A stretch of DNA of 64,000 nt from a phage. A program made the translations under genes and the position numbers. Below the pieces are notes generated by a model that did no database searches, was not told where the DNA came from, and saw nothing but the letters and a program-made list of their open reading frames with translations. Shown one piece after another: positions 3,514-60,791 of the stretch (its first letter is position 1; every line of letters starts with the position of its first letter). The stretch is from sequence record PZ445530.1; one strand, written 5' to 3'.

Positions 3514-5937
3514 ATGAGCATGTGGTCGTTCGATTTTGAGTCATCCGGTTTGCTGGAAGACCCAGATCTTTATTATCACTGCGGCCTGTTTAAAGAGCTG
3601 AATAAGAACCGTTTTATGCTGTTCCTTCCTCTGAATGACCGCACACACTACTCCGAGGAGGATATAGAGAAGGCCAAGAACTTTATTCTGGCAAAGAAAA
3701 CTCTTTATAAGGATTTTGAAGTTCGCATAGCAGATTTTTCGGAGTTGGAAGGTTGGCTTACAGGAAATTCCGACTGGTCACCAACAGCTTTGAACTGCCA
3801 TAACTGCTACAGTTATGACTTTATGCTGATGGAGAGATTATCCGGTATTCATTTTGATATGTTCCGTGATCCTAAATGTATGGGGACTATCAACGACCAC
3901 CAGGTTAACCTGTTTGATACGTTGGCGATGAGCCGAATCTTGTGGCCTGATCGCCCTTTACCAAAAGGTTGTCCGGACTCCGTATTCAACCCGGTTACTA
4001 AGAAAATGCAGCCTGTTGGTCCTCACGGCCTTATGGCATGGGGCTACGCCCTTGGTAACCAGAAAGTTCAAATTGATGATTGGCGCGATCTTCCGTTGTG
4101 GAAGTATGTGGATCGTGTATTCGAGGACGTTATCATCCAGGAGCTACTCTGGAAAGAGCTGGTAGCGGAATCAAAAGGTGTATTCTACGGCAAATCTGAC
4201 ATGCAGAACTTTATGTACGATCCTGCCAAAGAGAAGCCGAAAGGGTTCAAGAAGATCACCTGGAAGAACGCATTGCGCCGGGGTATGCTGCAACACTTCC
4301 TGATGGAGCTGCAGGCCCGTCAGGGTGTGTATTTTGACATAGATGGAGCTATTGCTTTACGTGACCGTTGCGATGCGTGGATGAAAGAAATCGCTGATCG
4401 TGTTGAACCACAACTGCCTTTAAAAGAGCTGTCAATGTCTCAGCGGCCCAAGTTCCCTGAAAAGCCGTTTAACCAAGATGGGACAATCTCTAATAATGGT
4501 TGGAAATGGTTAAAAGATAAGCTTGGCTATCCTGTGGACATGAGTGCTTTAGAGTTCAAAGCCCCACCTAAGCGAGCATTTACCTCTACAGGAGATGTCA
4601 GTAAGATGGGGATAAAATGGTGTGAAGAGATGGGCTGCAAAGACCACGATAAGATGGCTGATTTCTTGAGAGGCTATATTAAGGGCACCTCCACACCACA
4701 ACCTTTACCTAAAGAGCTGATGGATCAGGCAATAAGCGATCTGCAGCAGAAGCGAATGCCTGACTGCAAGATACCTATGAAAATCAGCAATCAGGACGAT
4801 ATTAAGCGATACCTGATCAGTGCTGGTTGGCTTCCGACAATGTGGAGAACTAAGGATGTAACTAAAGACAGCAAGAAGAAAGCTTTACCTGATGCAGATG
4901 TTGATGCACGAGTATATGCATATATGGACGAGCTTTTGGAGTCAGAGTATTGTGACCTAATTATCAACTTCTGGAACAAAACTGATGCTAAGTTCCAGAC
5001 AACCGTGCACAAGTTCCGAAGCTTTCCTAACTCCGAAAGGATTAAAAAGGAAGTATTCGGGAAAATACGTAGAAAAGCTAGGGCACTTATTACTTCTCCG
5101 CAACTGAAAGATACGTTTGGACACCTGTGTCCGAATCTTGAAAAATTGAACGGAGAGATGGCTAAAGATATCGTCTTATGGTTATCATTGCGAAACCGCA
5201 GATCGGTACTTGATCCAATCAAGGAGGATAAGGTTGACACTGGTCTTCTTAATCACCCACGTTTGAAGATTGACCATAAGCTTCCTGCTAAAAGCTCTGG
5301 ATTAACAAACACTTCCAGACAGAAACACAGTATTTGTGCAAACATGCCTAAACCCTCTCCTAAAGTGGTTATGGGTAAAGAGATGCGTAGCTTGTGGGGT
5401 GTTCCTCCAGGATACTTTGAGATCGGTATCGACGGGTCCAACTTAGAGCAGCTTATCGGGGCTTGGGGTGCCTTTGAGTTCGACAACGGCCTGTATTACG
5501 ATGTTGTAAGTAACGGAGACGCACACCAAAACAATGCTGAGGCATATACAAAAGTAGCAGGCAGAGAGGTGTCCCGTAACGACGGTAAACCTATCACGTA
5601 TGGGGTTATGTACGGGGCACAAAAAGATAAAGTTGCAGATATGCTGGACATCTCTCCAGAGTTGGGACAAAGGGTAATCGATGCGCTTTGGGATGCCAAC
5701 CCTGGTCTTAAGGGCCGTAAAGAGGATCTGGAGAAATTCTGGGAAGCAACGGGTAAGAAGTTTATCTACTCTTTTGATGGTCATGCCATCTGGACCCGAT
5801 CTAAACACTCTTTACTTAATGCATACCAACAGAATGGTGGTGCATCGCTGTGTGACTTGGTTGGGATACTTATGCACCACCAAATGGTGAAGCGTGGGTG
5901 GTACGATGAAGGTGTTCGTCGTATTATCTATTACCAT
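3514..5937 (+). CDS. DNA polymerase family A, exon 1 (3'-5' exo domain plus polymerase motifs through motif B)
   Basis: exo motif FDFESSGL; motif B KPITYGVMYGAQ; frame ends ...IIYYH immediately before stop, where motif C HDE is expected. Confidence 0.8.
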
Positions 5938-6779
5938 AAATAACATTGTGGCTTCGTGCAGTGATGCACGTCGAAAACCTCTTTAATTGACGGGAAGGCT
6001 AAGTTGACTTTTACACCTAAACATGGTAAAAGCTCAATATGCTAATCCGCAGCGAAGACTAAAGGGGTGTAGTTAAAATGGCTAGATCAGTTGAGTATCA
6101 CGGATATACCGTGTTTGATGATGGAACAATACCTTTATCGAAACGTGATCATACAACAATGTTTTGTTTTGATAATGGTCGAGGTTACCTTTGCGTAACC
6201 ATGTTCATCGAGGGGAAGCAGTGCACAAAAGGTGTCCACCACTTGGTTGCTGAATGCTTTGTATCAAACCCTGATCCTGAAAGGCTCACATGGGTGAACC
6301 ATAAGGACGGAAACAAATACAACAATGCATACTGGAACCTTGAATGGACCACCCCTGGTGGAAATATCAAACACGCTTATGATAATGACCTCAGAGTAAG
6401 GCCAGTCGGTGAGTATAATGCCAACGCTGTACTGACCGAGGATGAGGTAACGGAGATTTGCGAACTGTTACAAAGTGGTTTACGACAATGCGAGATTAGG
6501 GATCTTGGGTATCCTTATGAGACGGTCAGAGCCATAAAGCAAAGAAGACAGTGGAAACATATCTCTAAAAACTACACCTGGTAGTAACGTTCAGAGACTA
6601 TCGAAAGCATAGCGCCAACATAAATTGGTGCGAAGAAGCGAGTAGAGTAGACCAGCAAGTGCGGTCGAAATGGGAGGTGCCTTGGTAACAAGGTAGTGAG
6701 ATAGTCCGATCCATACAGGAAACTGTATGGCTGTGCACGTAATGGTGCGGGGTAGCTTAACGACCTACCTGAACTATTG
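5938..6779 (+). mobile_element. group I self-splicing intron interrupting the DNA polymerase gene
   Basis: conserved core elements P (AATTGACGGGAAGG ~5985), Q (AATCCGCAGC ~6044), R (GTTCAGAGACTA ~6589), S (GAGATAGTCC ~6698); exon 1 ends in T, intron ends in G; exon frames differ. Confidence 0.7.
6078..6584 (+). CDS. intron-encoded HNH homing endonuclease
   Basis: NHKDGNKYNNAYWNLEW HNH motif; ORF nested between intron Q and R elements; own SD. Confidence 0.75.
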   Translation: MARSVEYHGYTVFDDGTIPLSKRDHTTMFCFDNGRGYLCVTMFIEGKQCTKGVHHLVAECFVSNPDPERLTWVNHKDGNKYNNAYWNLEWTTPGGNIKHAYDNDLRVRPVGEYNANAVLTEDEVTEICELLQSGLRQCEIRDLGYPYETVRAIKQRRQWKHISKNYTW

Positions 6780-15119: not shown

Positions 15120-15700
15120 GGGATTTCTAAAATGGATTTCCTCCTTTTGATATTTCACCGGGCTGGATATTTTAAAATTCTTAGAAAATCAGAAAATGGA
15201 TCGAAAACTAAAATGGATTTTTCAGAGTAGGCGCGACAAGCTGAATAACTCATCCTATCGTTTGCACCATATTCCAGGCCACCATTATAGATTTTCCACA
15301 CATGCTAACCTCCCTCTACTAGAACTTCCTCCACTTGCCCTTAACCTTCTATGGTAACAATCTAACCACTATCTTGAAGTTGCGGTGCAGCTTTCCAAGT
15401 ACTCGATCTGTTTTTCATTTCATGGCTTGGATTTTCTGAAAATTTTTCTCGATAAATTTCTCAGTACTCGATCTGTTTTTCGTTTTCTGAATCGGATTTT
15501 CTGGAAATCGTTCCGGATCTCGACCTGAAATTTTTGGGGACGAAATCGATTTTTCGTTTTCAGAAATGGATTTTTAAAATTTCTATATGGGAATATTTTA
15601 TGGGATACTGTTTTATAGGAAATTGTTACGGAGGGTAATTAGCATGCTAATTAAATTTATTAAATGCGAGGAGTTCTCATTTAGAATTTTGAATGATAAT
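15120..15700. repeat. AT-rich non-coding region with short direct repeats (AAATGGATTT x4, AGTACTCGATCTGTTTTTC x2)
   Basis: no ORF with SD; repeated motifs visible by eye. Confidence 0.5.
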
Positions 15701-15900
15701 CATTCTCGTTTGCAGAATAACGGGCAGGCCCGGTGATTGTCTCCCGGCCCCTGTTGCCCCGGCTTGTTATTATAGTATCACACAGGACAAAGAAAGCAAG
15801 GATTTTTTGCATAAATTTTTAAATGATAATGATAACCGTTCTCATTTTATGCAGCGCCCATCCCCGGTGGTTGTCTTCCCCGTCACCGGTGCCTGCCGTC
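15690..15900 (+). repeat. two copies of an ~80-nt element (AATGATAAT...TTCTC.TTT..GCAG... then GC-rich CCCGG tract)
   Basis: copy 1 ~15690-15770, copy 2 ~15820-15900; followed by three CCTGGCGGGGCC motifs (~15926, ~15989, 23100). Confidence 0.4.
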
Positions 15901-16114
15901 CTTTCGATAGGTATATTGTGCCACCTGGCGGGGCCGCTGTCAACACTTTTCAAAAAATTTTTCTAACCTGATGCGCTAACCGCTGCAACCTGGCGGGGCC
16001 AGCCTGGCAGGACCTAACTGACCAGGTAGGAGAGAATGAAGGCTTGTAAACCTGGTGGGCCTATGCTATAGGACAGGTAACAATTGAAGAGGAGGTACAA
16101 AAATAAAAGGTAAT

Positions 16115-16273
16115 ATGATCCCCCTGGAAAATGTAGCTATTAATGACGCTGAGGCTATCGCCCTGGTTGAAAAGGCCATGGCGGGAGCGTTGGAACATAA
16201 AGAAGAGTACGAAAAAATGATGGTTAACCTGGCAGGGCGGCGGCAGGTGGATTCTATCATAAAAATAATTTAA
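16115..16273 (+). CDS. hypothetical small protein (52 aa)
   Basis: ATG with AAGG SD 5 nt upstream; below ORF-track length cutoff. Confidence 0.35.
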   Translation: MIPLENVAINDAEAIALVEKAMAGALEHKEEYEKMMVNLAGRRQVDSIIKII

Positions 16274-16281
16274 AATAATTG

Positions 16282-16309
16282 TTGACAACCGGGGGAGTCC
16301 TGCTATTCT
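16282..16309 (+). promoter_or_regulatory. sigma70-type promoter
   Basis: TTGACA-16nt-TATTCT. Confidence 0.5.
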
Positions 16310-16361
16310 TACCCTACAAGGTGAACAACACCGCACTAACTAGTAAAGAGGATAAAAAATC

Positions 16362-16559
16362 ATGAACGCATACGGAATCAAAGTACGTCGCAACACTCGC
16401 CAGGTGGTCACCGATCAAGTGGTTTGCCTGGTGGATGTAACCATCAACAACGGGCAAGGCCTTTATAAATTTCGTCGCGGTCATAGCTATACCCTGCAAC
16501 AGCTTAATCGTTGCGCCCTGACAAAAGGTCAGATCAATCACTGGTTTAATAAAAAATAA
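16362..16559 (+). CDS. hypothetical protein
   Basis: 65-aa ORF, SD AAAGAGGA. Confidence 0.55.
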   Translation: MNAYGIKVRRNTRQVVTDQVVCLVDVTINNGQGLYKFRRGHSYTLQQLNRCALTKGQINHWFNKK

Positions 16560-16562
16560 GTA

Positions 16563-16591
16563 TTGACATACGCCCCGACACAAAATATACT
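16563..16591 (+). promoter_or_regulatory. sigma70-type promoter
   Basis: TTGACA-17nt-TATACT. Confidence 0.55.
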
Positions 16592-16623
16592 GAAATCACA
16601 AAAGACACTAAGAGGATAAAATC

Positions 16624-17022
16624 ATGAAAACCACAACCTTTAATTTTGACAATGCCGACTTCTCTTTTTCTGATGTCAAGAACTGCCGCCGTGATCGTGG
16701 ATTTTACAAGGCTTATAATCTGGTTGGCCTGGACGATGATAATAATTTGCACGAAGTAGCGGAGATCCGGTACTATGCCGCCGCCAGCGGTAACACTAAC
16801 TACTGCGTTTTTTGGATACACGACAACAAGAACAATAAGTACGGTTATACTGGCGGCAAGGCGAGCGGTCACGGTTATGATAAAGCTAACGCAGCACTTG
16901 AGAGCGCATTAAATGCTATGGGGATCACTGCCAACGGCTGGATCTACGAAGAAGAGTTTTTGTCGGCACTTGCTGACCACCTAGGCTATAAAAAGCACAT
17001 TGTAACATGTGCCCACGAATAA
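16624..17022 (+). CDS. hypothetical protein
   Basis: 132-aa ORF, SD AAGAGGA. Confidence 0.55.
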   Translation: MKTTTFNFDNADFSFSDVKNCRRDRGFYKAYNLVGLDDDNNLHEVAEIRYYAAASGNTNYCVFWIHDNKNNKYGYTGGKASGHGYDKANAALESALNAMGITANGWIYEEEFLSALADHLGYKKHIVTCAHE

Positions 17023-17029
17023 AAAATTA

Positions 17030-17057
17030 TTGACACGCTGCAAAATTCAAGTAAACT
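17030..17057 (+). promoter_or_regulatory. sigma70-type promoter followed by 5'UTR hairpin GGCGGGG-atgttt-CCCGCC (~17068-17086)
   Basis: TTGACA-16nt-TAAACT. Confidence 0.5.
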
Positions 17058-17105
17058 AGACACAAAAGGCGGGGATGTTTCCCGCCAGCACAAAGGAAAA
17101 AGATC

Positions 17106-17510
17106 ATGAATAAGAACGTACGCCGCATCATGAACGAACTGGCAAACGATGAAAAAATTATTGACATGCATTTATTCAACATTTGCCGCCGTTGTGTAAC
17201 ATATAACAACCGCGCCGCAAAAGCGCGTGAGATGAACGCAAAAGGCACCTTAAAGCCATTCCAGGTGGTGGTAAAGGCCATTAAAGATGTAACTAATACG
17301 GCAAACCAGGTACAGGGGAACACCAACGAGAGTACCAATATTGATCCGGCTTACATCATGAAACGGATCCGGACCTGCAAGAACAAAGAGCAAGTGTATA
17401 ATATCATAGACTGGTTGGATTCTATGGGCGATGTGGTTTACAATAGGTTTTCTGCAGCTATCGAGATCCAGCTTGACAGGTTGGACGGTAAAGTACTGAA
17501 AACTTACTAA
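17106..17510 (+). CDS. hypothetical protein
   Basis: 134-aa ORF, SD AAGGAAA. Confidence 0.55.
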   Translation: MNKNVRRIMNELANDEKIIDMHLFNICRRCVTYNNRAAKAREMNAKGTLKPFQVVVKAIKDVTNTANQVQGNTNESTNIDPAYIMKRIRTCKNKEQVYNIIDWLDSMGDVVYNRFSAAIEIQLDRLDGKVLKTY

Positions 17511-17512
17511 GT

Positions 17513-17560
17513 TTATTTTTAGATGGCCTTGACTTCAGGGCCATCAATAAAGTAAACTAA
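17513..17560 (+). repeat. repeated intergenic element containing hairpin GATGGCC-TTGACTTCA-GGGCCATC and promoter-like TTGACT/TAAACT (copy 1)
   Basis: near-identical copies at ~18134-18180 and ~21853-21898; variant at ~18472-18520. Confidence 0.55.
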
Positions 17561-17591
17561 TCTCAACTAAGCGAAAAAAGGGGGCTTTAAG

Positions 17592-17711
17592 ATGAGCACT
17601 ACACGCCAATACACAAAGGTAACTATTATCGTTTGCGTTGTCGGTTACATCCTGGCGCAAATGTTAATGAGTAGCGCTAACAGTTTTGCAAAATTTTTCT
17701 TAAATTTTTAA
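17592..17711 (+). CDS. small hydrophobic peptide (39 aa)
   Basis: ATG after AAGGGGG SD; TM-like TIIVCVVGYILAQMLM. Confidence 0.35.
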   Translation: MSTTRQYTKVTIIVCVVGYILAQMLMSSANSFAKFFLNF

Positions 17712-17739
17712 TTGACAAACTAACTTAGATCGATATACT
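17712..17739 (+). promoter_or_regulatory. sigma70-type promoter
   Basis: TTGACA-16nt-TATACT; hairpin GGGAAaactTCCC in 5'UTR. Confidence 0.55.
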
Positions 17740-50623: not shown

Positions 50624-51607
50624 TTAGATTATCTGAATCAGGGTATTTTTCATTTCTTCTCTGGTGCGGATGTTGTTACGGTCACGAACAACAGATCCAC
50701 AACCTTCGCAGCGGTATGTTTTAAATGCACTCAGTTGAGTATACGCCAAAGCTTCTTCCTCGTGAAGGTGTTCTCCACCACAGCGTGGGCAACGAACTTT
50801 TGGCTCCTCATCCTGGTAGTACAATGACATGTTGGGGTGCTGCTTAGCAAACGGGCGAGCCAGCAAATACAGGCCTTCCAGAGATAGGATATCGCCAACA
50901 TTGTACTCCCGCATCTGTTTAAACGCCTCAAGATCACCGTGAACACACTTGATCCACATTTCAAATGTGTGGTCAATCAGTTTCTGTCGGGCAAGTTGGA
51001 AGTATTTGCATGCATACTCCAAAGTGTTTGCATTCAAACGGAATGCCTTCTTGATCATTTTAAGGGTGTCAACCTCTTTGTAGGGGCTTGTTGGAGGCAA
51101 TCCGTGAAATGCAAATCGTTGGTTGGCCCACCCACAGTCAAAACCTGAATTGTGGGCTACTGCGACATCACATTTATCCAGATAATACCACAAATCCTGA
51201 ATCAATTCGAGATCATTGTGAATATCCTCATCCCACATTTTGTAATCAGGAAGAGCGCAGTCAACCACACTAGGACTGTCTAACCACTTACCTGCGAAAG
51301 TTAGCATGTAGGGCATAATTTCAATACCGCAGGTTTGAATGTTGGTCTTATAGTGCCCAAAGAACCAGCCGTTTGTTGGAGATGTCTCTGTATCATACAC
51401 CCAAACTTTAGCACCTTTGTGCTCTTCAAGGAAGCGCTCCGTTGCTTCTCCTACAATCTCTGACATATTCTCTTGTGCACGTTTAAGCTGTAGTCGGATC
51501 CAGCTCTCACGTGACTCACGGCCTAAAAATTCACGAGCAATTTGTCTATTAGTGTATCCCTGTTGCTTTAGTGTTAAAATTTGCTCAAGAGTTAACTTTG
51601 TCATCAT
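50624..51607 (-). CDS. DEDD-family 3'-5' exonuclease with N-terminal HTH and C-terminal Zn ribbon
   Basis: Exo I VYDTETS, Exo II VAHNSGFD; CPRCGG...CEGCG. Confidence 0.65.
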   Translation of the reverse strand: MMTKLTLEQILTLKQQGYTNRQIAREFLGRESRESWIRLQLKRAQENMSEIVGEATERFLEEHKGAKVWVYDTETSPTNGWFFGHYKTNIQTCGIEIMPYMLTFAGKWLDSPSVVDCALPDYKMWDEDIHNDLELIQDLWYYLDKCDVAVAHNSGFDCGWANQRFAFHGLPPTSPYKEVDTLKMIKKAFRLNANTLEYACKYFQLARQKLIDHTFEMWIKCVHGDLEAFKQMREYNVGDILSLEGLYLLARPFAKQHPNMSLYYQDEEPKVRCPRCGGEHLHEEEALAYTQLSAFKTYRCEGCGSVVRDRNNIRTREEMKNTLIQII

Positions 51608-51619
51608 CGTTAAGATTCC

Positions 51620-51841
51620 TTAGTAAAACTGAAGAATGTCTTTTAAAGCGAAGTCACGATATTCGCCCTTGTCTACATCGAAGGCACGCATCAACCACTG
51701 CTCTTCTTTATGATACTCTGTAGAGCCAAACCATAAATTAGGCTCAGTAACGCAGCGATCTGCAACAACACCTTTCCAGTTACGGTATTTCATCCTGATC
51801 AGGACTGAGTCGCAAGGATTGAATACCTTTTTCATCCCCAT
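51620..51841 (-). CDS. hypothetical protein
   Basis: 73-aa ORF. Confidence 0.4.
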   Translation of the reverse strand: MGMKKVFNPCDSVLIRMKYRNWKGVVADRCVTEPNLWFGSTEYHKEEQWLMRAFDVDKGEYRDFALKDILQFY

Positions 51842-52385
51842 AGAAATCTCTCTCCTCAGTTTTCTTTATAAACTCCTGCATGTAGGACTCAATAGCCTCA
51901 TGCTTGGTGCACTCTGGATTAATGACAAGATTGAGATCTGATTCTGCTCGTGCAATAATCGTAGCTTTAGAGCATCTCCTCAAGAACTTTGTCATATCAT
52001 CTCTGTAGTTTTTGTGGAGCGGGAAGTCGCTGTAGTCTTTCTCCAGATAGTCAGCCATCCGGCGCAACGCCTCTGATAAACTGCAATCTGTATACTCGTT
52101 ACAGTATTTCATCCAGTATTTAAGCACATACCCCTCAAAGGTATTAGTGCACTGAGACAAAACACCCCTGCAACGACCAGTCAGATGATCATGATCTAAA
52201 CAAGGCTTACGAAGTGGCTCGCACAAGATCGGATCAAGACCATCCTGCTCCTCTGACAATTCTTTTCGAAAGTTGGCTATGTCCTTAGAATCTTTTAGCC
52301 ACCCGCTATGAACGGGGGCTTTGACAGCTTTCTTTCTTATTTTACGCTTTGCGATAACCCCTCCAGATGCGCCCTGCCTATCCAA
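51780..52385 (-). CDS. recombination endonuclease VII-like junction resolvase
   Basis: CEPLRKPCLDHDHLTGRCRGVLSQCTN matches EndoVII Cx..C.DHDH.TG..RG.L..CN signature. Confidence 0.65.
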   Translation of the reverse strand: MDRQGASGGVIAKRKIRKKAVKAPVHSGWLKDSKDIANFRKELSEEQDGLDPILCEPLRKPCLDHDHLTGRCRGVLSQCTNTFEGYVLKYWMKYCNEYTDCSLSEALRRMADYLEKDYSDFPLHKNYRDDMTKFLRRCSKATIIARAESDLNLVINPECTKHEAIESYMQEFIKKTEERDFYGDEKGIQSLRLSPDQDEIP

Positions 52386-52966
52386 TAAGCATCTGCGAGA
52401 TCGGCCTTACCTTGTACCAAATTGATCCCATCTAGGAACCCTGGTTCAGATACTTCGCAGGCCTTAACCATCAACTTTTTATCCATCGTAACAGGTTTCT
52501 TCACAGTATGCTCTTTACCTGTCTTTTTGTCAAGCTTTTTCTTCTCCTCAAAAGCAAGTTCTTCAGGAAGATGACTACGAGCAAACTTTTTGGCAGTTGT
52601 TGGTGTCACTGTGTGAACCTTAAACAGGCCGTCATTTTCACAATCAGCTAAAGCATCCCAAAGCATAACTTCGAGACCGTAAAACAACCCAGCCAGTTCA
52701 CGTGTGGCATCCCCGCGAGATCCGAAGGAAAGTCCTTCCATAACCACGGTGTCAACTCCGTGCGTGTGGATATAATATCTGACCTGTTTGCAGATCCAGT
52801 CAATACGCTCAGCAGCTGTTGCAAAAGAAACCGTCCCTGGTTTCTTCTCTTTTGCAGATGAGCTTTGAGTTCGTAACACAACCTTATGAACAGGCTTTCC
52901 ATCGTCCCATACAACGCAAGCTGTGTGTGTCAACGACTGGTCTATGGATAATAGACGCTCTCTCAT
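52337..52966 (-). CDS. RuvC-like Holliday junction resolvase
   Basis: LLSIDQSLTHTACVVWD (Asp), VVMEGLSFG (Glu), ADLADAYWIGRAHL (Asp) in RuvC order. Confidence 0.5.
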   Translation of the reverse strand: MRERLLSIDQSLTHTACVVWDDGKPVHKVVLRTQSSSAKEKKPGTVSFATAAERIDWICKQVRYYIHTHGVDTVVMEGLSFGSRGDATRELAGLFYGLEVMLWDALADCENDGLFKVHTVTPTTAKKFARSHLPEELAFEEKKKLDKKTGKEHTVKKPVTMDKKLMVKACEVSEPGFLDGINLVQGKADLADAYWIGRAHLEGLSQSVK

Positions 52967-53298
52967 ACTTCCTCATCCTCCTCTCCTTCATCAGGAGCAT
53001 AAGCCTTATCTTTGAACAAGACGAGAGAGCAAAGCTTAACATCTGTTTCCACACTGGTGAACATGCATAACCGCTCGCCCTCAATCAGTTCACAATCCTC
53101 TTTTAAAACAGCAGACCATACACGGTCATCTGCGTAATCATCAGTGTACAGGATGTATGAAATGGTGTCATCTTCATACAACCGCCACATACCTGTGGCA
53201 ACAACGAATGTATTTTTTGTTTTAAGTGTCCCTGTTGTATGATCATCCTCAAAAACAGCTTCCATAATTGCACTATCTACAGAATTTTTAGTCATCAA
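52963..53298 (-). CDS. hypothetical acidic protein
   Basis: 111-aa ORF. Confidence 0.45.
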   Translation of the reverse strand: MMTKNSVDSAIMEAVFEDDHTTGTLKTKNTFVVATGMWRLYEDDTISYILYTDDYADDRVWSAVLKEDCELIEGERLCMFTSVETDVKLCSLVLFKDKAYAPDEGEEDEEV

Positions 53299-54434
53299 AT
53301 TGCTCCAACATTTCTAAGAACGTTAACAAGTTTTGTTTGATCATTGAATGTTCGCTTCATATACAAACAGTCAAAAATTATACTCATCCATTGACCTACG
53401 GAAATTCTACGATCAACACCATTGAAGTCAGTATACTTAACAACACCTTTCGGGAACCACTTCTTGTACTGATCAATAATAGCCACCCACATCTCCTTTG
53501 GAGTGCTGCACTGAGACAGTAGGTAGAATGCTGAGGCATCCCCGAACTTACCCTTACCGATAAGTCCTTGATACGGCTTGATATTGTCGGCAGAGTCACC
53601 ACACAGCATTTGGTATCCGAAGAACAGCATTCCGTAACCACCAACCTCTCCATTAGGCTTCATGAAGATGTTCCCCATACCGTTATCGATCAGCATAGGG
53701 GTTTCCCTTACAAAATCTCCCTTATCGTTTCGCATGGGATCGAACACAAGCCCCGGCAGTGTTCTTTGGTCCTTATCAATAGAGATAATAAACTTGTTGA
53801 ACTTACCTGTTTTTTGGTAGTGGTTCCAACCTTCAAATTGCTGGATAGCTAACCAGTCGTCAGCCTCGATACCGTTGATCACTTGAGCATTATACTGCTT
53901 TTGGAGATACTGTCTTGCATCTCCAAGCAGCAGTGGTCGAAGAGTATTGTTACGGTTGGCTTTATATCTTTCCGGCATGGGAAGATCTAGTCTGAAATTA
54001 CCTGTGCCTCCAAGTACCCCCACGCACCGATCTTCCGGAATACCGAGATAATTAAGGACTGCATTAGCTTTACACTTAATTGTGTGCAAGCAGTTCTCTA
54101 CAGGATCAGGGGTTTGGATATCCAAGACATCGAAATCTTCTCGTGTCCACGGAATAAACTCCTTGCCAGCCTTTTTACATGCAGCTTCACGGTTGGTATT
54201 CTCAGCTTTTAACCAACCACCAACGGTGTTCTTCTGCCGCCCCCAGAACTCTGTTCGTGTTTTAAACATCTTCTTACGTCCGGAGGCTTTGTGTGTTACC
54301 TCAATTGTCCTTTTTTCACAACTTGCTGCAGCTTGATATGCAACCTGATCGAAGTCATAATAAACTATAGCGTCAGGTTCAAGAAGATCAGCCAGACAAT
54401 CTATGGACTCAATAAGTGGATATTCTCTACTCAA
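53295..54434 (-). CDS. 5'-3' exonuclease / flap endonuclease (FEN)
   Basis: GIEADDW, SIDKDQ and CGDSADNIKPYQGL match the EADD / DKD / GDxxDNIPG FEN motifs. Confidence 0.75.
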   Translation of the reverse strand: MSREYPLIESIDCLADLLEPDAIVYYDFDQVAYQAAASCEKRTIEVTHKASGRKKMFKTRTEFWGRQKNTVGGWLKAENTNREAACKKAGKEFIPWTREDFDVLDIQTPDPVENCLHTIKCKANAVLNYLGIPEDRCVGVLGGTGNFRLDLPMPERYKANRNNTLRPLLLGDARQYLQKQYNAQVINGIEADDWLAIQQFEGWNHYQKTGKFNKFIISIDKDQRTLPGLVFDPMRNDKGDFVRETPMLIDNGMGNIFMKPNGEVGGYGMLFFGYQMLCGDSADNIKPYQGLIGKGKFGDASAFYLLSQCSTPKEMWVAIIDQYKKWFPKGVVKYTDFNGVDRRISVGQWMSIIFDCLYMKRTFNDQTKLVNVLRNVGAI

Positions 54435-54735
54435 AGACCCTCCTGTTAGTTATTCTGCAAGATGGTTGGATGCTGTAATGGAATGCATCATCACTCTCTG
54501 CAATAAGTGACTCAACATCCCAATACTTTTCAAAAAGGAACGGATTAGACCCCCAGTGGTGGGTTATTTTCATCAAGGAGTCTGATATCATATAACCACA
54601 GATCTTAATTACATCGCCAGGTTGAATTGTGTTTTCATGAAGGTTGCTTGCCTTCTTCAGAATCATACCTTTATGATTCTCGTTTGCATACAACTGGACA
54701 ATATCTTTATCTTCAACAATAAAAATTTTAAGCAT
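54427..54735 (-). CDS. hypothetical protein
   Basis: 102-aa ORF. Confidence 0.45.
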   Translation of the reverse strand: MLKIFIVEDKDIVQLYANENHKGMILKKASNLHENTIQPGDVIKICGYMISDSLMKITHHWGSNPFLFEKYWDVESLIAESDDAFHYSIQPSCRITNRRVFE

Positions 54736-54794
54736 ATCTAGTTCTCCTAGTTTATAGATATCTGACCGATAATATCAGATTAATAACACTTTTG

Positions 54795-55088
54795 TCAAGA
54801 CTTTTTGGTCTTTCTTGGAGAGCTTTTTGTTGATCTTTTCCTTTTGTGGTAGATTCCAAGTGCAGCGTTTTCTTGGGCGCACGTTTTAACAGTTCTCAGA
54901 CAAGAACTTTCAGCTTTAGGCAGGTTTAACTCCCACCAACCAAGCCAGTAAAGTTCTGATTCAGACAACTGCTCAGATTCAGCCTTCCGATACAAGGATT
55001 GCATACCTCTGATGATGTCGTCCAGAGGTGTATCGAATACAAAAGCTGTCTTATCAAATTTCTCTTTTAAAGGTTTCTTAGCCATCAA
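54795..55088 (-). CDS. hypothetical protein
   Basis: 97-aa ORF. Confidence 0.45.
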   Translation of the reverse strand: MMAKKPLKEKFDKTAFVFDTPLDDIIRGMQSLYRKAESEQLSESELYWLGWWELNLPKAESSCLRTVKTCAQENAALGIYHKRKRSTKSSPRKTKKS

Positions 55089-55542
55089 GGTAACCCTCTA
55101 TCCACGAAAAGTCAGTCTTCCATTCTGGAACTTTACTAAGCTCACGCCACTCTGCAAAGCAGTCTCGGTAATACGCCTCTGCCATACCCTTGGTGATCTT
55201 ATTCACCTTAGCCAACTGACTAACTGCCTGAGCATACTTTCCACGGATATTTGCTAACCCAGGATGCACAGATGTGTGACAATCTGGGCACAACGCTATC
55301 AGTCCGACAAGCCGGATCACTCCCTCTTCGAAAGTGTAAAGTTCATGACACTCCACTGGGTGTTTGCTGCCTTTACCGCCGCACACCTCACAGGTGTAGT
55401 TGGCTTCTCTATAGCACTTCTTGCGGATCTTATCCCACTCACTCTTCTTTACAGCGTTTCGGAGGTTATTATACCAAGCTGTTTCTGGGATCAGTTGCAC
55501 AATAAGCCTGCGTTCAGACTTCATTAAACGTCCGTCTTCCAC
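55078..55542 (-). CDS. HNH nuclease-like zinc-finger protein
   Basis: CEVCGG...HPVECHELY...LCPDCHTSVH. Confidence 0.5.
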   Translation of the reverse strand: MEDGRLMKSERRLIVQLIPETAWYNNLRNAVKKSEWDKIRKKCYREANYTCEVCGGKGSKHPVECHELYTFEEGVIRLVGLIALCPDCHTSVHPGLANIRGKYAQAVSQLAKVNKITKGMAEAYYRDCFAEWRELSKVPEWKTDFSWIEGYLDG

Positions 55543-55551
55543 GTATCCCCC

Positions 55552-55758
55552 TTATTCAAAGAAATGGGTGCGAGGGCAGGAACCTGCCTCGCCTTGTTTC
55601 ACAAGCTCGTAGAGCTCACCTTGGCTTGTCTCATAAAGGCAAATACGTTTACCATTGTCCCGATATACATCGACAAGATACGCTGTTTCACCTGCAAACA
55701 CGACACCACAGGCCAGACATGCTGCCATGAACAAAATTGCCAACAGAAAATCTTTCAT
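55552..55758 (-). CDS. putative small lipoprotein/secreted protein
   Basis: signal-peptide-like MKDFLLAILFMAACLACG with possible lipobox Cys. Confidence 0.4.
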   Translation of the reverse strand: MKDFLLAILFMAACLACGVVFAGETAYLVDVYRDNGKRICLYETSQGELYELVKQGEAGSCPRTHFFE

Positions 55759-55826
55759 GGTTAAACCCTCCCTAACATTGTATGAGGTAACAATACCACG
55801 TCCGTGTGGTCATGTCAATGATACTG

Positions 55827-56525
55827 TTACAATCTTTCAGCAAGAGCCTTTGCGTAACACGCTTCAGCAGACTCTTTGGTGTCAAACCTGCCTAGCGTTT
55901 TTCCTCTGAAAGTTACTTTCCATTTGCCCCTATCTGCTTCAAATCTGACACCTCTAGATTTATCCCTCCCTAAAGGCTGTCCACGATATTCCCTGACAAA
56001 CGTGCCACTTTCAAAAGACTTTTGAGCAGCAAGGGCCTCTTCTAAGGTATCGTATTCTCCTAGGTCTTTCTTATAGTAATGACCTACCTTACCAAAAGCA
56101 GCATACCTTCCAGTTCTAGCATGAAAATATACACCCAAGTGTCCAGTGTTAGATTTAGGTATCTTGCGTGCCAGGCATCCGTCATCTGCCGCCTTTTTTG
56201 CGTTTTCTTCTGGTGTTAACAGTTGTAGGTTTTCTATCCTGTCATCAGCAACACCATCGGAATAGAAAAGTGGCTTTATGTGATCAACTTCGTACCCTTC
56301 TGGAATTGGTCCATAATGCATCTCCCACACCAATCTATGCCTGTAGTAATGCACGCCGCGATAGATTATATCCCTGTACCCGTCCATGTTAGTACATCCA
56401 GCCTCCTTTCCCATCAGTTGAGGTTTGTTTTTTGGTGGGGACTTCCAAAACAACCTTCCAGTGCCTGTATCGTATCTAAAGACACTCCACCAGTCAATCC
56501 CGTTACTCATCTGTAACAACTCCAC
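55827..56525 (-). CDS. HNH homing endonuclease
   Basis: HRLVWEMHYGPIPEGYEVDHIKPL...NLQLLTPEENAKK HNH signature. Confidence 0.7.
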   Translation of the reverse strand: MELLQMSNGIDWWSVFRYDTGTGRLFWKSPPKNKPQLMGKEAGCTNMDGYRDIIYRGVHYYRHRLVWEMHYGPIPEGYEVDHIKPLFYSDGVADDRIENLQLLTPEENAKKAADDGCLARKIPKSNTGHLGVYFHARTGRYAAFGKVGHYYKKDLGEYDTLEEALAAQKSFESGTFVREYRGQPLGRDKSRGVRFEADRGKWKVTFRGKTLGRFDTKESAEACYAKALAERL

Positions 56526-56991
56526 CTGCCTTCTTAAAGATCTCCAGCATCTTGTCTATACTTTCTGCTCGCTGATTGTACAGCTTTCCAGCCCCTGGCG
56601 GTGGTGGGAAGCTTGCCCAGCGGCTGCGGCATTTATAAATGGCCTGATGAATACGCCCTTCATCAATGTCGGCGAGAGCCTTGCACTCACGGATCAGTTG
56701 CAACGCAATCTTGTCCTGACTGTCAGGGCCAAAATCTGGTAATCCTAACTGTTTCATGTAGTGTTTAGCAAACTTCTCCAAAACCTGGTAACGCCCAGCA
56801 GCGGAGGAGGTAAGTTTAGCATTTAGCTTAACGTAAACACCGGGATGCTTGCTGTAATCGCTGAACAGCTTGCCTCCGACTATGACATCGTACCCCCGAT
56901 CCTTGGTAGGTTGTCTACCATTATCTGTGCCTTCCGAATATGCGATCATATCCAAGAAAGCTTTTCGTTGAACATTTTTATCAAGTTTCAT
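56503..56991 (-). CDS. endolysin, lambda R-like lytic transglycosylase
   Basis: near-colinear with lambda R: QRKAFLDMIAYSEGTDNGRQ...GYDVIVGG...FSDYSKHPGV...AAGRYQ. Confidence 0.8.
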   Translation of the reverse strand: MKLDKNVQRKAFLDMIAYSEGTDNGRQPTKDRGYDVIVGGKLFSDYSKHPGVYVKLNAKLTSSAAGRYQVLEKFAKHYMKQLGLPDFGPDSQDKIALQLIRECKALADIDEGRIHQAIYKCRSRWASFPPPPGAGKLYNQRAESIDKMLEIFKKAGGVVTDE

Positions 56992-57115
56992 TTTTCATAC
57001 TCTCCAGTTTACTCATAACTAACCCGATCAACAACACTGCATAGTGTGGTTATGTAGGTGCCAATTGAAAAACCATCATTCAATTGGCTACCGTTACCTA
57101 CTGAACCTCCCTACA

Positions 57116-58399
57116 TCATTCCAGCACCTCCCAAGTGTCTGGGTTAACATTTCGGACGCAGATACCGACAGGGAATTGGTAGTTGTTGTCTTCTGTCCTT
57201 GCTTGATATTTGAAGGTGACAAACTTGCCGATCATTTCCTGCATCCTGTCATAGCTACGCTCCTCGTGCGTGCCTTTCATCTTCATTTTAACAACAACAC
57301 CTTCCTTGTCAACACAGATAAGAACACCTTCATCATTCTTATCTTTCTCAACGTCAATAACTTTCACCTCTGCGTCGTTGAACTTTTTCCATTTCAATGC
57401 TTCAGATGTTCGCTGACCATACTCATATTTACCACAGAAGTTACGCATAATGGTACCTTCATATCCTTCAGACATAAATATACCAACAGACTCTTCGCAC
57501 CGATCAACCGTATATGCAAGCTCTGCATCAACAACCTTAATATGATCAAGCATCAAAGAAGTAATAGCACCGTTTGCCTCCATAAGATCCTTACAGCGAC
57601 CAGACTCTGTTTCAGGATCCCACCACACCTTATCGCTAGGAATATCGAAAATATGATACTCTAAGTCGTAGCTGCAGTACCCTCCGTAACGCAAATCATC
57701 ACGAACAGGCTCAACATCAACAGGAATGTCCACCTTGTTGAAGTTTTTGTATGTTGCTAAACCTGCTTTAATCGCAGCCTGACGGCGTTTTTTATCTGCC
57801 TTGTAGTCTTTATCGATCTCGGCCTGAATTTCTTCCTGTGTGCGCCACCGTTTAGCAAGAGACACTATTTTCTGCAAAGGAAGACCATGAATGTATAGTT
57901 CCCCATCAAGTTGTTTAATCCCAGTGGTAGAATGGAAAGAACGAAGTTGCTCTAAAAGCTTTCCTTGAATAGGGTAGGACTTATTACCACGGGAAATAAA
58001 TTTAGGCTCACCATTTTGGAAAACAACAAGCAGACGAAGGCCATCTAACTTACGCAAGATCCAGCAAGGTAATTTAAGTGCCTTGCCACGCTTCAGGTAG
58101 TCATGCACCAGCATGGGTAAAAGATCAACACCCTGCTCGCAATCTTCCATGTTTTCAACATACCCCAGACGGACTTGTTTTTCCCACTTGCTGATAGCCT
58201 CAAGCTCGGCCTGTTGCTCAGCTGTAGTCTCGTTGGCACGACCTACGTTCTTAGGTGTGCATACCGTCTCTTTGTACTGCAGTTTACCATCAAGCTTGCC
58301 AAACTCTACGATAACCTTATCACCATCCGTGAATACTTTCCACTGTTGGTAGCTGCCATCTTTATTCAGTGCGTACAGTGTTGTTTTGATCTGATGCAT
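57116..58399 (-). CDS. ATP-dependent DNA ligase
   Basis: motif I KLDGLR, motif IV EGYEGTIMR, motif V ALKWKKF. Confidence 0.75.
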   Translation of the reverse strand: MHQIKTTLYALNKDGSYQQWKVFTDGDKVIVEFGKLDGKLQYKETVCTPKNVGRANETTAEQQAELEAISKWEKQVRLGYVENMEDCEQGVDLLPMLVHDYLKRGKALKLPCWILRKLDGLRLLVVFQNGEPKFISRGNKSYPIQGKLLEQLRSFHSTTGIKQLDGELYIHGLPLQKIVSLAKRWRTQEEIQAEIDKDYKADKKRRQAAIKAGLATYKNFNKVDIPVDVEPVRDDLRYGGYCSYDLEYHIFDIPSDKVWWDPETESGRCKDLMEANGAITSLMLDHIKVVDAELAYTVDRCEESVGIFMSEGYEGTIMRNFCGKYEYGQRTSEALKWKKFNDAEVKVIDVEKDKNDEGVLICVDKEGVVVKMKMKGTHEERSYDRMQEMIGKFVTFKYQARTEDNNYQFPVGICVRNVNPDTWEVLE

Positions 58400-59752: not shown

Positions 59753-60286
59753 TTAAAGTTCCATAAAGTTTTCTACAGTTTCAATAAATGCTTTATCAGA
59801 GAAAGCGTCAACAGCACCGTTAAACCATACAGGGATCCCGCGATCCTCATATTGATAAAGGTCGCTACGTGAAATGCCACTTCCATCTGCACTCTGCGAA
59901 TCATACTTGTTTACAATCAGCAGTTTTGTGCCTTTACAAGTAGCAGGAAACAATTCCCAGTTAAAATTAATAACTGTGTTAGAACAACCTACCAGGATCA
60001 CCATATCATTGCTTGTGAGAGATGTCAACAGGTCATACATGTCTGTATACTTAGGAGCAACCTCACCGAAGAACACTACATTGGGCTTAACCCAGGTATA
60101 CTTGCCTGTATCTACCTCCGTGTATCCGATATTTTTAATTACATCATTACCTTCAGCATCTTCGTAGGTGATTTCAGGCAAATACCCGTGGACATGTAAA
60201 ATATCTTCATGTTTTACACCAGCACGCTCCAGCAAATCATCTACATTGGTAGTAAGGTTGATCACACGACCAGACCAGCGGGTCAT
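59753..60286 (-). CDS. Sir2-like (sirtuin-fold) protein, apparently lacking the N-terminal NAD-binding GAGIS region and the Zn-binding cysteines
   Basis: NVDDLLERAG, ILHVHG, KPNVVFFGE, MVILVGCSNTV match sirtuin motifs QNID.LH.RAG / LHG / RP.VV.FGE / LV(I/V)GTS. Confidence 0.45.
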   Translation of the reverse strand: MTRWSGRVINLTTNVDDLLERAGVKHEDILHVHGYLPEITYEDAEGNDVIKNIGYTEVDTGKYTWVKPNVVFFGEVAPKYTDMYDLLTSLTSNDMVILVGCSNTVINFNWELFPATCKGTKLLIVNKYDSQSADGSGISRSDLYQYEDRGIPVWFNGAVDAFSDKAFIETVENFMEL

Positions 60287-60791
60287 GGAGTTTGATTCAT
60301 GTCAAAAACACAGATCTCAGTATGATCACAATCTTGACAGTATGAATGCGGGAATCATCGCCGAGTGGAACTCTGTTGTGTCACCTGCAGACACTGTGTT
60401 CCACTTGGGAGATATTGCGTGCACTAATGATAAGAATATCAACAACTTACTTCCAGATATTCTAAATATGTTGAACGGACATATTATTCTTGTTCGTGGC
60501 AACCATGACACAAGGACGACTGTCAGAATTATGAAAGAGTTCGGTCATGAGGTTGTAGATTATTACGAGCTTCGCCACAACAAGAATTTAATCTGTATGA
60601 GCCATTACCAGTTTGCAAAGTGGAACAGAAAGCCTCACGGATCAGTCCAACTGTTCGGTCATGCTCACGGAACCACACAACAGTTGTTTGGCAGGCAGCT
60701 TGATGTCGGTTGGGATGTGTGGGGGAGACTCTTACCATTAGAAGAGGCATACCGTATTGCAATGAGTTTTGATATTGACAGCAGGGAGTAA
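60285..60791 (+). CDS. metallophosphoesterase-like protein, N-terminal metal-binding motif I absent or degenerate
   Basis: IAEWNSVVSPADTVFHLGDIA (motif II), LVRGNHD (motif III), GHAHG; start abuts the Sir2-like start codon on the other strand. Confidence 0.45.
   Translation: MEFDSCQKHRSQYDHNLDSMNAGIIAEWNSVVSPADTVFHLGDIACTNDKNINNLLPDILNMLNGHIILVRGNHDTRTTVRIMKEFGHEVVDYYELRHNKNLICMSHYQFAKWNRKPHGSVQLFGHAHGTTQQLFGRQLDVGWDVWGRLLPLEEAYRIAMSFDIDSRE

Follow-up and report, generated by a model that had tools for sequence, protein, structure and literature searches.

The subject of this work is a 7.8-kb block of phage genes, positions 50624-58399 of a 64,000-nucleotide stretch of DNA (sequence record PZ445530.1; the whole stretch is called the window below), in which a gene for a RuvC-like protein lies next to a gene for a homologue of T4 endonuclease VII (EndoVII; gp49). 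From end to end the block is 98.9% identical in nucleotide sequence to Escherichia phage RudolfGeigy, more than 100 other rV5-like phages (genus Vequintavirus) match it at 94-99% nucleotide identity, and at least 80% of it is covered in 112 database records. The source of the window is an rV5-like phage (Vequintavirus), and the matching records of close relatives carry a gene-by-gene annotation of the region already. The original prediction, made from the letters alone, had described a recombination/repair cluster of seven genes (exonuclease, EndoVII, RuvC-like, 5' nuclease, two HNH and ligase). All seven were found, every one on the minus strand, at the positions below. The word "repair" needs correction, since a stand-alone 5' nuclease, a proofreading-type exonuclease and a ligase are replication enzymes, and the block is better described as a replication/recombination nuclease module of a known genus; it is an ordinary block of this kind from an rV5-like phage and has been sequenced before.

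50624..51607, minus strand: DnaQ-like DEDDy 3'-5' exonuclease, 327 amino acids (aa); phrog_403, motifs, zinc ribbon
51780..52385, minus strand: T4 endonuclease VII (gp49) homologue, 201 aa; PF02945, T4 fold, beta-beta-alpha-metal active site
52337..52966, minus strand: predicted RuvC-family junction endonuclease, divergent, 209 aa; phrog_159, RuvC fold, D-E-D-D tetrad
53295..54434, minus strand: predicted 5'-3' exonuclease (flap endonuclease), divergent, T5-D15 / Pol I type, 379 aa; phrog_107, motifs
55078..55542, minus strand: HNH/zinc-finger nuclease (HNH154), 154 aa; phrog_5200, CxxC...H...CxxCH
55827..56525, minus strand: free-standing HNH_3 + AP2 homing endonuclease, 232 aa; Pfam, presence/absence
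57116..58399, minus strand: ATP-dependent DNA ligase, 427 aa; two Pfam ligase domains, phrog_114, KLDG

The 209-aa protein matched phrog_159 in PHROGs at 3.3e-39, a family that carries the name "RuvC-like Holliday junction resolvase". A Pfam scan gave the protein no match of its own, PF02075 included, and a direct sequence search of the PDB returned nothing meaningful. Among 5.8 billion proteins we found 33 relatives, two of the most distant of which have a precomputed Pfam RuvC match, and when the 32 aligned sequences of the family were scanned singly PF02075 was matched by four of them (best E 1.8e-6). The profile search that had been proposed as a check on the RuvC-like fold gave a weak answer, the family profile reaching D. 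radiodurans RuvC in the PDB at E 0.56, and the fold was instead obtained from a model. Structure prediction and a fold search were needed here because the sequence searches against the PDB were nearly blank. An AlphaFold2 model built from the family alignment had a predicted local distance difference test score (pLDDT) of 92 and a predicted template modelling score (pTM) of 0.88. In a Foldseek search of the PDB its 13 best matches (E values from 5e-8 to 6e-4; target-normalised TM-scores of 0.71-0.78) were all RuvC resolvases, those of T. thermophilus, D. radiodurans, P. aeruginosa, E. coli and Lactococcus phage bIL67. Among predicted viral structures (BFVD) the model matched phage proteins named RuvC or Holliday junction resolvase.

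The catalytic residues, whose loss would have spoken against the RuvC-like identity first proposed for this protein, are all in place. In direct alignment D9, E77, D189 and D192 fall on D7, E66, D138 and D141 of E. coli RuvC, all four being invariant there, while across the 32 aligned family sequences E77 never varies and at least 90% of them keep D9, D189 and D192 (the latter two in a DxADA motif). Two lysines, K126 and K163, coincide with conserved lysines of the E. coli enzyme. Compared with bacterial and phage RuvC (PF02075) the protein shares the RNase H-like RuvC fold, the D-E-D-D tetrad and two aligned lysines, and as in other phages and poxviruses it stands alone, in a module without RuvAB partner genes. 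It differs from the solved RuvCs in that identity is only ~12-17% and in being ~50 residues longer. It carries two insertions, one near residues 34-50 and one that forms a Lys-rich beta-hairpin at about 130-160, the latter modelled with high confidence; both are missing from E. coli RuvC and from the short members of the family. We rejected the label "RNaseH" that some GenBank records give to this protein, as its best structural matches are RuvC and both the tetrad and the lysines are present. From the PHROGs match, the aligned residues, the scans of its homologues and the modelled fold we predict that the 209-aa protein is a junction nuclease of the RuvC family whose active site is complete.

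The neighbouring 201-aa protein scores 31.7 bits against Pfam PF02945 (Endonuclease_7; gathering cut-off 23.6) and matches T4 EndoVII in the PDB (1e7d) at E 1e-4 over T4 residues 37-153, that is, past the nuclease core and into the C-terminal helical region. Its AlphaFold2 model (pLDDT 84.5; tails 1-10 and 183-201 disordered) found only T4 EndoVII entries (1e7l, 2qnf and 1en7) as significant Foldseek matches in the PDB, with E values of 7e-7 to 7e-6, TM-scores of 0.69-0.75 and 152-157 aligned columns, so that the fold agrees with T4 EndoVII from end to end, helical dimerisation region included. The EndoVII-like resolvase of the original prediction is thus borne out, by a Pfam score above cut-off and by T4 EndoVII as the only significant fold match. 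Across 36 homologues L63, D64, H65, H67, R73, G74, V75, N81 and G85 are invariant and E84 is present in at least 90%; D64, H65, H67, N81 and E84 are the aligned equivalents of D40, H41, H43, N62 and E65 of the T4 enzyme. Taken together these data show two predicted structure-specific junction endonucleases of unrelated folds encoded side by side, each with the fold and the intact active site of its family.

The homologue and T4 EndoVII (gp49; PF02945; PDB 1en7/2qnc) thus have in common full-length homology and fold, the extended helical dimerisation region and the catalytic residues, and both come from large virulent myoviruses. The zinc site is structurally important in T4 EndoVII. In the alignment, however, the T4 zinc-knuckle cysteines C23, C26, C58 and C61 are replaced by D51, L54, S77 and T80, so that the window protein lacks all four. 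An alternative zinc site built from C55, C62, C72 and C79 was considered and rejected, since these residues are not jointly conserved in the alignment of the 36 homologues. The loss amounts to a small structural variant of a family for which a survey of His-Me finger nucleases counts the zinc knuckle as a structural feature (PMC5714182). Further differences from T4 EndoVII are a basic, disordered extra tail of ~30 residues at the N terminus (pLDDT below 65) and a short C-terminal tail, which result from gene overlaps: the open reading frame (ORF) shares 49 nt with the RuvC-like gene (52337-52385) and 62 nt with the downstream 73-aa gene (51780-51841). TTG is the only in-frame start in its first 35 codons and is not preceded by a Shine-Dalgarno sequence. 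This start, together with the overlaps, suggests from the sequence that translation of EndoVII may be weak or coupled to that of a neighbour. To our knowledge T4 has EndoVII as its sole resolvase of the two families, whereas in the window it is accompanied by a RuvC-like gene.

These structural peculiarities raise the question of whether only one of the two proteins is a real resolvase, the zinc-less EndoVII having been repurposed (for nicking mismatches or heteroduplexes, or for acting on host or foreign DNA) or the RuvC-like protein filling some other role of the RNase H fold. The loss of the four T4 zinc ligands with no alternative cysteine set conserved in the family, and the basic disordered tail, could be read in this way, as could the two lineage-specific insertions of the RuvC-like protein, its Lys-rich hairpin included, and the "RNaseH" label attached to it in some database records. 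On the other hand the EndoVII homologue matches T4 over its full length, including the helical dimerisation architecture that places two active sites on a junction, and the RuvC-like protein has bona fide resolvases without exception as its best matches in structure, covered over their full length and with every catalytic residue. We consider repurposing unlikely; were one of the two to have been repurposed, the zinc-less EndoVII would be the likelier.

Conservation of the two genes as a pair was followed in a synteny set of 40 loci, made up of 37 viral-contig loci with RuvC-like relatives and three contigs from an exact protein look-up, whose ORFs were scanned with the window proteins and the family profiles. 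In 23 of the 40 the RuvC-like gene is followed, on its own strand, by a gene for an EndoVII homologue that either overlaps it or is at most ~0.75 kb away, and the genes there follow the order HNH154, 5' nuclease, (hyp111), RuvC-like, EndoVII, hyp73 and DnaQ-like exonuclease, hyp111 and hyp73 being conserved small proteins of 111 and 73 aa. Protein identity to the window in these paired loci is ~35-50%. Clustering of the genes is thus not due to chance, as the core order is kept in 23 of 40 loci. By tblastn against complete phage genomes we found both the RuvC-like and the EndoVII gene in PVP-SE1, CR3-type phages, GAP31, KB57-type phages, CB7 and Aeromonas phages, and the record of Enterobacter phage FENT2 has both annotated, as "RuvC-like Holliday junction resolvase" and "endonuclease VII". 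Comparison with the same module in Vequintavirinae (rV5, FV3, RudolfGeigy, PVP-SE1, CR3, GAP31, CB7, KB57 and FENT2) showed the same gene content and order, with 94-99% nucleotide identity within Vequintavirus and 40-65% protein identity in other genera; the window differs in having an optional HNH-AP2 gene and a unique deletion of ~2.08 kb just outside the region. The RuvC-like gene is the more deeply conserved member, and the pair is stable across Vequintavirinae and some Aeromonas phages.

Selection on the module was estimated as the ratio of nonsynonymous to synonymous substitution rates (dN/dS) against phage FV3, to which the genes are ~92-97% identical at the nucleotide level. The values were 0.044 for the RuvC-like gene, 0.159 for EndoVII, 0.021 for the 5' nuclease, 0.008 for the DnaQ-like exonuclease, 0.042 for HNH154 and 0.041 for hyp111. 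All module genes, both resolvase genes included, are under purifying selection. Retention of the pair across the subfamily together with purifying selection on both members argues against the decay of a duplicate function, and judged by their sequences both junction nucleases look functional.

The same comparisons bear on the idea that the EndoVII gene entered as a selfish or recent insertion of HNH type and came to lie beside the RuvC-like gene by chance. EndoVII does belong to the His-Me/HNH superfamily (PMC5714182), the genome carries mobile HNH genes (one at 55827-56525 that is absent in phage JeffSchatz, and an HNH insertion in the polymerase gene), and EndoVII is missing beside the RuvC-like gene in 16 of the 40 loci, which are more distant. 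Yet its position and orientation are kept in 23 loci over several genera at 42-65% identity, its dN/dS is 0.159, and its homology to T4 gp49 runs over the full length and is not limited to a homing-endonuclease architecture. Moreover, when 125 close relatives were compared, no presence/absence gap was seen in the region apart from the ~700-bp HNH-AP2 gene. A selfish origin of the EndoVII gene is thus highly improbable.

The mobile gene of the block is of another kind. The 232-aa protein scores 52.5 bits against Pfam HNH_3 (cut-off 24.8) and has an AP2 match as well, and its gene is precisely absent from phages that are otherwise 98% identical, such as JeffSchatz, in which the gene for a membrane protein is immediately followed by that for the endolysin. 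Because it is absent from near-identical phages we conclude that it is mobile, a selfish homing endonuclease that lies outside the module. The 154-aa protein, HNH154, matches phrog_5200 at 4.5e-72 as well as other HNH phrogs and displays the motifs CEVCGG, ECHELY and CPDCH; a Pfam scan of it gave nothing significant. Homologues of its gene (E 1e-40 to 1e-59) lie upstream of the 5' nuclease gene, often abutting it, in ~24 divergent loci, and as this position is kept HNH154 is a conserved core gene and not a mobile one. The name "putative homing endonuclease" that it bears in some records was rejected on account of its synteny across the subfamily. The two HNH nucleases that had been noted are therefore both present and differ in kind, the 232-aa protein being a mobile homing endonuclease and the 154-aa protein a conserved core gene.

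A putative mobile sequence was also seen elsewhere in the window, as a side observation. Within or after the DNA polymerase gene there is a 643-bp insertion (6003-6645) with an HNH ORF (6078-6584, plus strand; phrog_59 at 6.5e-38) where RudolfGeigy has 69 bp, and the polymerase coding sequence of RudolfGeigy is annotated as a join of two pieces. A mobile intervening sequence thus seems to interrupt the polymerase gene of the window.

The remaining enzymes of the block set the context in which the two junction nucleases would work. The 379-aa protein matches phrog_107 at 5.7e-71 and has no Pfam match and no PDB sequence match of its own. In an alignment with 13 homologues D27, D29, D100, E190, D192, D193, D220, K221, D222, D280 and D283 are invariant, the acidic clusters sitting within the motifs YKxNR, EADD, DKD and GDxxDN. 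The best matches of its family profile in the PDB were all T5 D15 exonuclease, weak (E 0.2) and with an alignment that spans YKGNR and EADD, and Pfam 5_3_exonuc_N (PF02739) was matched by 8 of 14 homologues (best E 1e-5). From the motifs, the T5 D15 matches and the Pfam matches of its homologues we conclude that this is probably a divergent flap endonuclease, as had been proposed. With T5 D15 and the Pol I 5'-3' exonuclease (PF02739, PF01367) it shares the carboxylate clusters and the YKGNR, EADD, DKD and GDxxDN motifs; it differs from T5 D15 in being ~90 residues longer, with an insertion of ~60 residues after the N-terminal acidic motif, and in its strong divergence, which leaves it without a Pfam match.

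At the other end of the conserved order, the 327-aa protein matches phrog_403, "DNA polymerase exonuclease subunit", at 1.4e-110, and scores 21.8 bits against Pfam RNase_T, just short of the cut-off of 24. Its DEDDy motifs are YDTETS at 71 (ExoI, DxE), HNSGFD at 152 (ExoII, NxxxFD) and YNVGD at 235 (ExoIII, YxxxD), and a zinc ribbon is present at the C terminus (CPRCGG at 273 and CEGCG at 300). It had been described as a DEDD exonuclease with a helix-turn-helix (HTH) motif; the exonuclease part holds by family and motifs, whereas for the N-terminal HTH we obtained Pfam matches to HTH_38 and HTH_7 at E 0.003-0.009, under their cut-offs. From its sequence it probably works on its own as a proofreading or processing exonuclease. 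The ligase was confirmed as ATP-dependent, with its adenylation domain (DNA_ligase_A_M, PF01068; 36.1 bits, cut-off 26.2) and its OB domain (DNA_ligase_OB_2, PF14743; 31.8 bits, cut-off 28) both over threshold, a match to phrog_114 at 2.3e-83 and a KLDG (KxDG) motif in the translation. Genes for a DNA primase/helicase and a family A DNA polymerase are located elsewhere in the 64-kb window. In the 809-aa polymerase (gene 3514-5943) Pfam shows the family A polymerase domain only, without an exonuclease domain, which is consistent with nuclease subunits being supplied as separate proteins.

One arrangement that would make sense of these genes is that the accessory activities for a Pol I-type replicase are provided as separate proteins of the module. 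The DnaQ-like exonuclease would supply 3'-5' exonuclease activity to the replicase, and the T5-D15-like flap nuclease and the ATP-dependent ligase would process Okazaki fragments. During replication, a RuvC-like dimer could then resolve the true Holliday junctions that recombination or fork restart produces. The EndoVII homologue, which is probably made at a low level given its TTG start and lack of a Shine-Dalgarno sequence, may act like T4 gp49, with broad-specificity debranching and mismatch nicking that would clear branches from concatemers before or during packaging. The literature on the families gives the background for such roles. PMC7344957 and PMC11370258 present T4 EndoVII as a nuclease of mismatch repair that is also required to debranch DNA ahead of packaging, and debranching for packaging and mismatch repair are also assigned to it in PMC5714182. 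Bacterial RuvC is Holliday-junction-specific and phage RuvC, for example that of bIL67, promiscuous on branched DNA (PMC3864405). We somewhat favour a division of labour as the most economical reading, with the RuvC-like enzyme acting on recombination and fork-restart junctions and EndoVII on packaging-linked debranching and mismatch nicking.

Several points weigh against this division of labour. We infer it purely from the roles of the two families. As phage RuvC enzymes such as that of bIL67 are themselves promiscuous (PMC3864405), the RuvC-like enzyme could debranch alone. As all four T4 zinc ligands are missing from the EndoVII homologue, its activity or specificity may differ from that of the T4 enzyme. 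The more distant 16 of the 40 loci carry the RuvC-like gene without EndoVII within 10 kb, so that the pair is not obligatory (one other locus is truncated). Lastly, the annotation of the RudolfGeigy genome (MZ501102.1; 98.9% identical) lists no recombinase for strand exchange or annealing, and PHROG scans of ten further window ORFs gave no recombinase; the junctions may accordingly come from fork reversal or from the action of a recombinase, be it host RecA or one that has gone unrecognised.

Some of these points would also fit plain redundancy, in which both enzymes act as backups on the same branched intermediates and two folds give robustness, for instance against inhibitors from a host or a competitor or across hosts and conditions, with no stage-specific roles. 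Both active sites are intact, both phage resolvase families are described as promiscuous on branched DNA (PMC5714182 and PMC3864405), and more distant relatives have the RuvC-like gene alone within the module. However, truly redundant genes are usually lost from compact phage genomes, and the adjacent pair persists under purifying selection on both members in lineages at ~40-50% protein identity. The two families are, besides, reported as nearly complementary in jumbo phages, where one is normally enough (PMC7824862). We therefore hold simple backup to be improbable. A stronger form of cooperation can also be envisaged, in which the pair would be obligate, the RuvC-like enzyme working on Holliday junctions and a zinc-independent EndoVII on other branches or recruited to the packaging motor, with HNH154, hyp111 and hyp73 as possible accessory factors; this would make a conserved exception to one resolvase per phage, in a phage group that lacks a recognisable recombinase. 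Such an obligate partnership seems to us quite unlikely.

The pairing of the two junction nucleases can be set against what has been reported. The distribution of RuvC and EndoVII in jumbo phages is reported to be nearly complementary (PMC7824862), which makes a conserved pair a modest curiosity, and in one paper mycobacteriophages are annotated with a single one of the two resolvase families per genome. In the literature on dual phage resolvases we found no paper that describes both in Vequintavirinae, and papers that discuss this phage group mention EndoVII and not RuvC. The phage, its genes and their order are already in public databases and the finding is known in substance; the conserved RuvC and EndoVII pair is a mild exception that has seemingly gone undiscussed. 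The adjacent pair across Vequintavirinae runs counter to the jumbo-phage distribution, and its biological interest is modest. The gain lies partly in annotation: the 209-aa protein that is "hypothetical" or "RNaseH" in most rV5-like genomes is predicted to be a RuvC-family junction nuclease, the 379-aa "exonuclease" is probably a flap endonuclease of T5-D15 type, and what is called a "homing endonuclease" of 154 aa belongs to the conserved core genes. rV5-like phages are easily grown and are held in biocontrol and therapy collections, and would thus lend themselves to asking why two unrelated enzymes that cut junctions are kept in one virus. Current understanding is unchanged unless distinct or cooperative roles of the two resolvases emerge.

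Also in the block, besides the genes named in the original prediction, are four short conserved ORFs and the genes of an endolysin and a small membrane protein:

51620..51841, minus strand: conserved protein (hyp73), 73 aa; phrog_3715 at 2.6e-26
52963..53298, minus strand: conserved protein (hyp111), 111 aa; phrog_7583 at 1.5e-56
54427..54735, minus strand: small protein, 102 aa; phrog_14449; nothing significant in Pfam
54795..55088, minus strand: small protein, 97 aa; phrog_6208; no Pfam match
55552..55758, minus strand: small hydrophobic protein, putative membrane protein, 68 aa; phrog_4641; relatives annotated as membrane proteins
56503..56991, minus strand: endolysin (lambda R-type lysozyme), 162 aa; phrog_90 at 3.2e-52; relatives annotated as endolysin

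Wherever synteny is kept (22 loci), the hyp73 gene is flanked by those for EndoVII and the exonuclease, and its Pfam matches, to WYL and Sm-like SH3 beta-barrel families, are sub-threshold only (E 0.02-0.03). The hyp111 gene lies between the 5' nuclease and RuvC-like genes and is syntenic in the closer relatives. We rejected the "transposase" labels that some records give to 54427-54735 and 54795-55088, for which there is no supporting domain match. The endolysin gene is a bystander, unrelated to DNA metabolism.

From 47.9 to 60.3 kb of the window every gene is on the minus strand and the GC skew is concordant. The block is flanked by nucleotide-metabolism genes and a methyltransferase on one side and by Sir2 and pyrophosphohydrolase genes on the other. 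Near the Sir2 gene the window lacks ~2.08 kb relative to RudolfGeigy (15660 to 17739 of the RudolfGeigy locus), with the junction at 60274-60282. The deletion touches the ORFs 59753-60286 (minus strand) and 60168-60791 (plus strand) and takes away the N terminus of Sir2 (177 aa are left), a small ORF, an RNA ligase, a polynucleotide kinase and the first part of a phosphoesterase. The junction is not spanned in one piece by any of 120 related phage records; the deletion could be a natural variant, a laboratory mutant or an assembly artefact.

A last observation concerns the database records. About 20 GenBank entries titled "Campylobacter phage" (for example MG065654 and MG065644) are 95-100% identical to these rV5-like coliphages, which suggests mislabelled hosts or a coliphage contamination of that data set.

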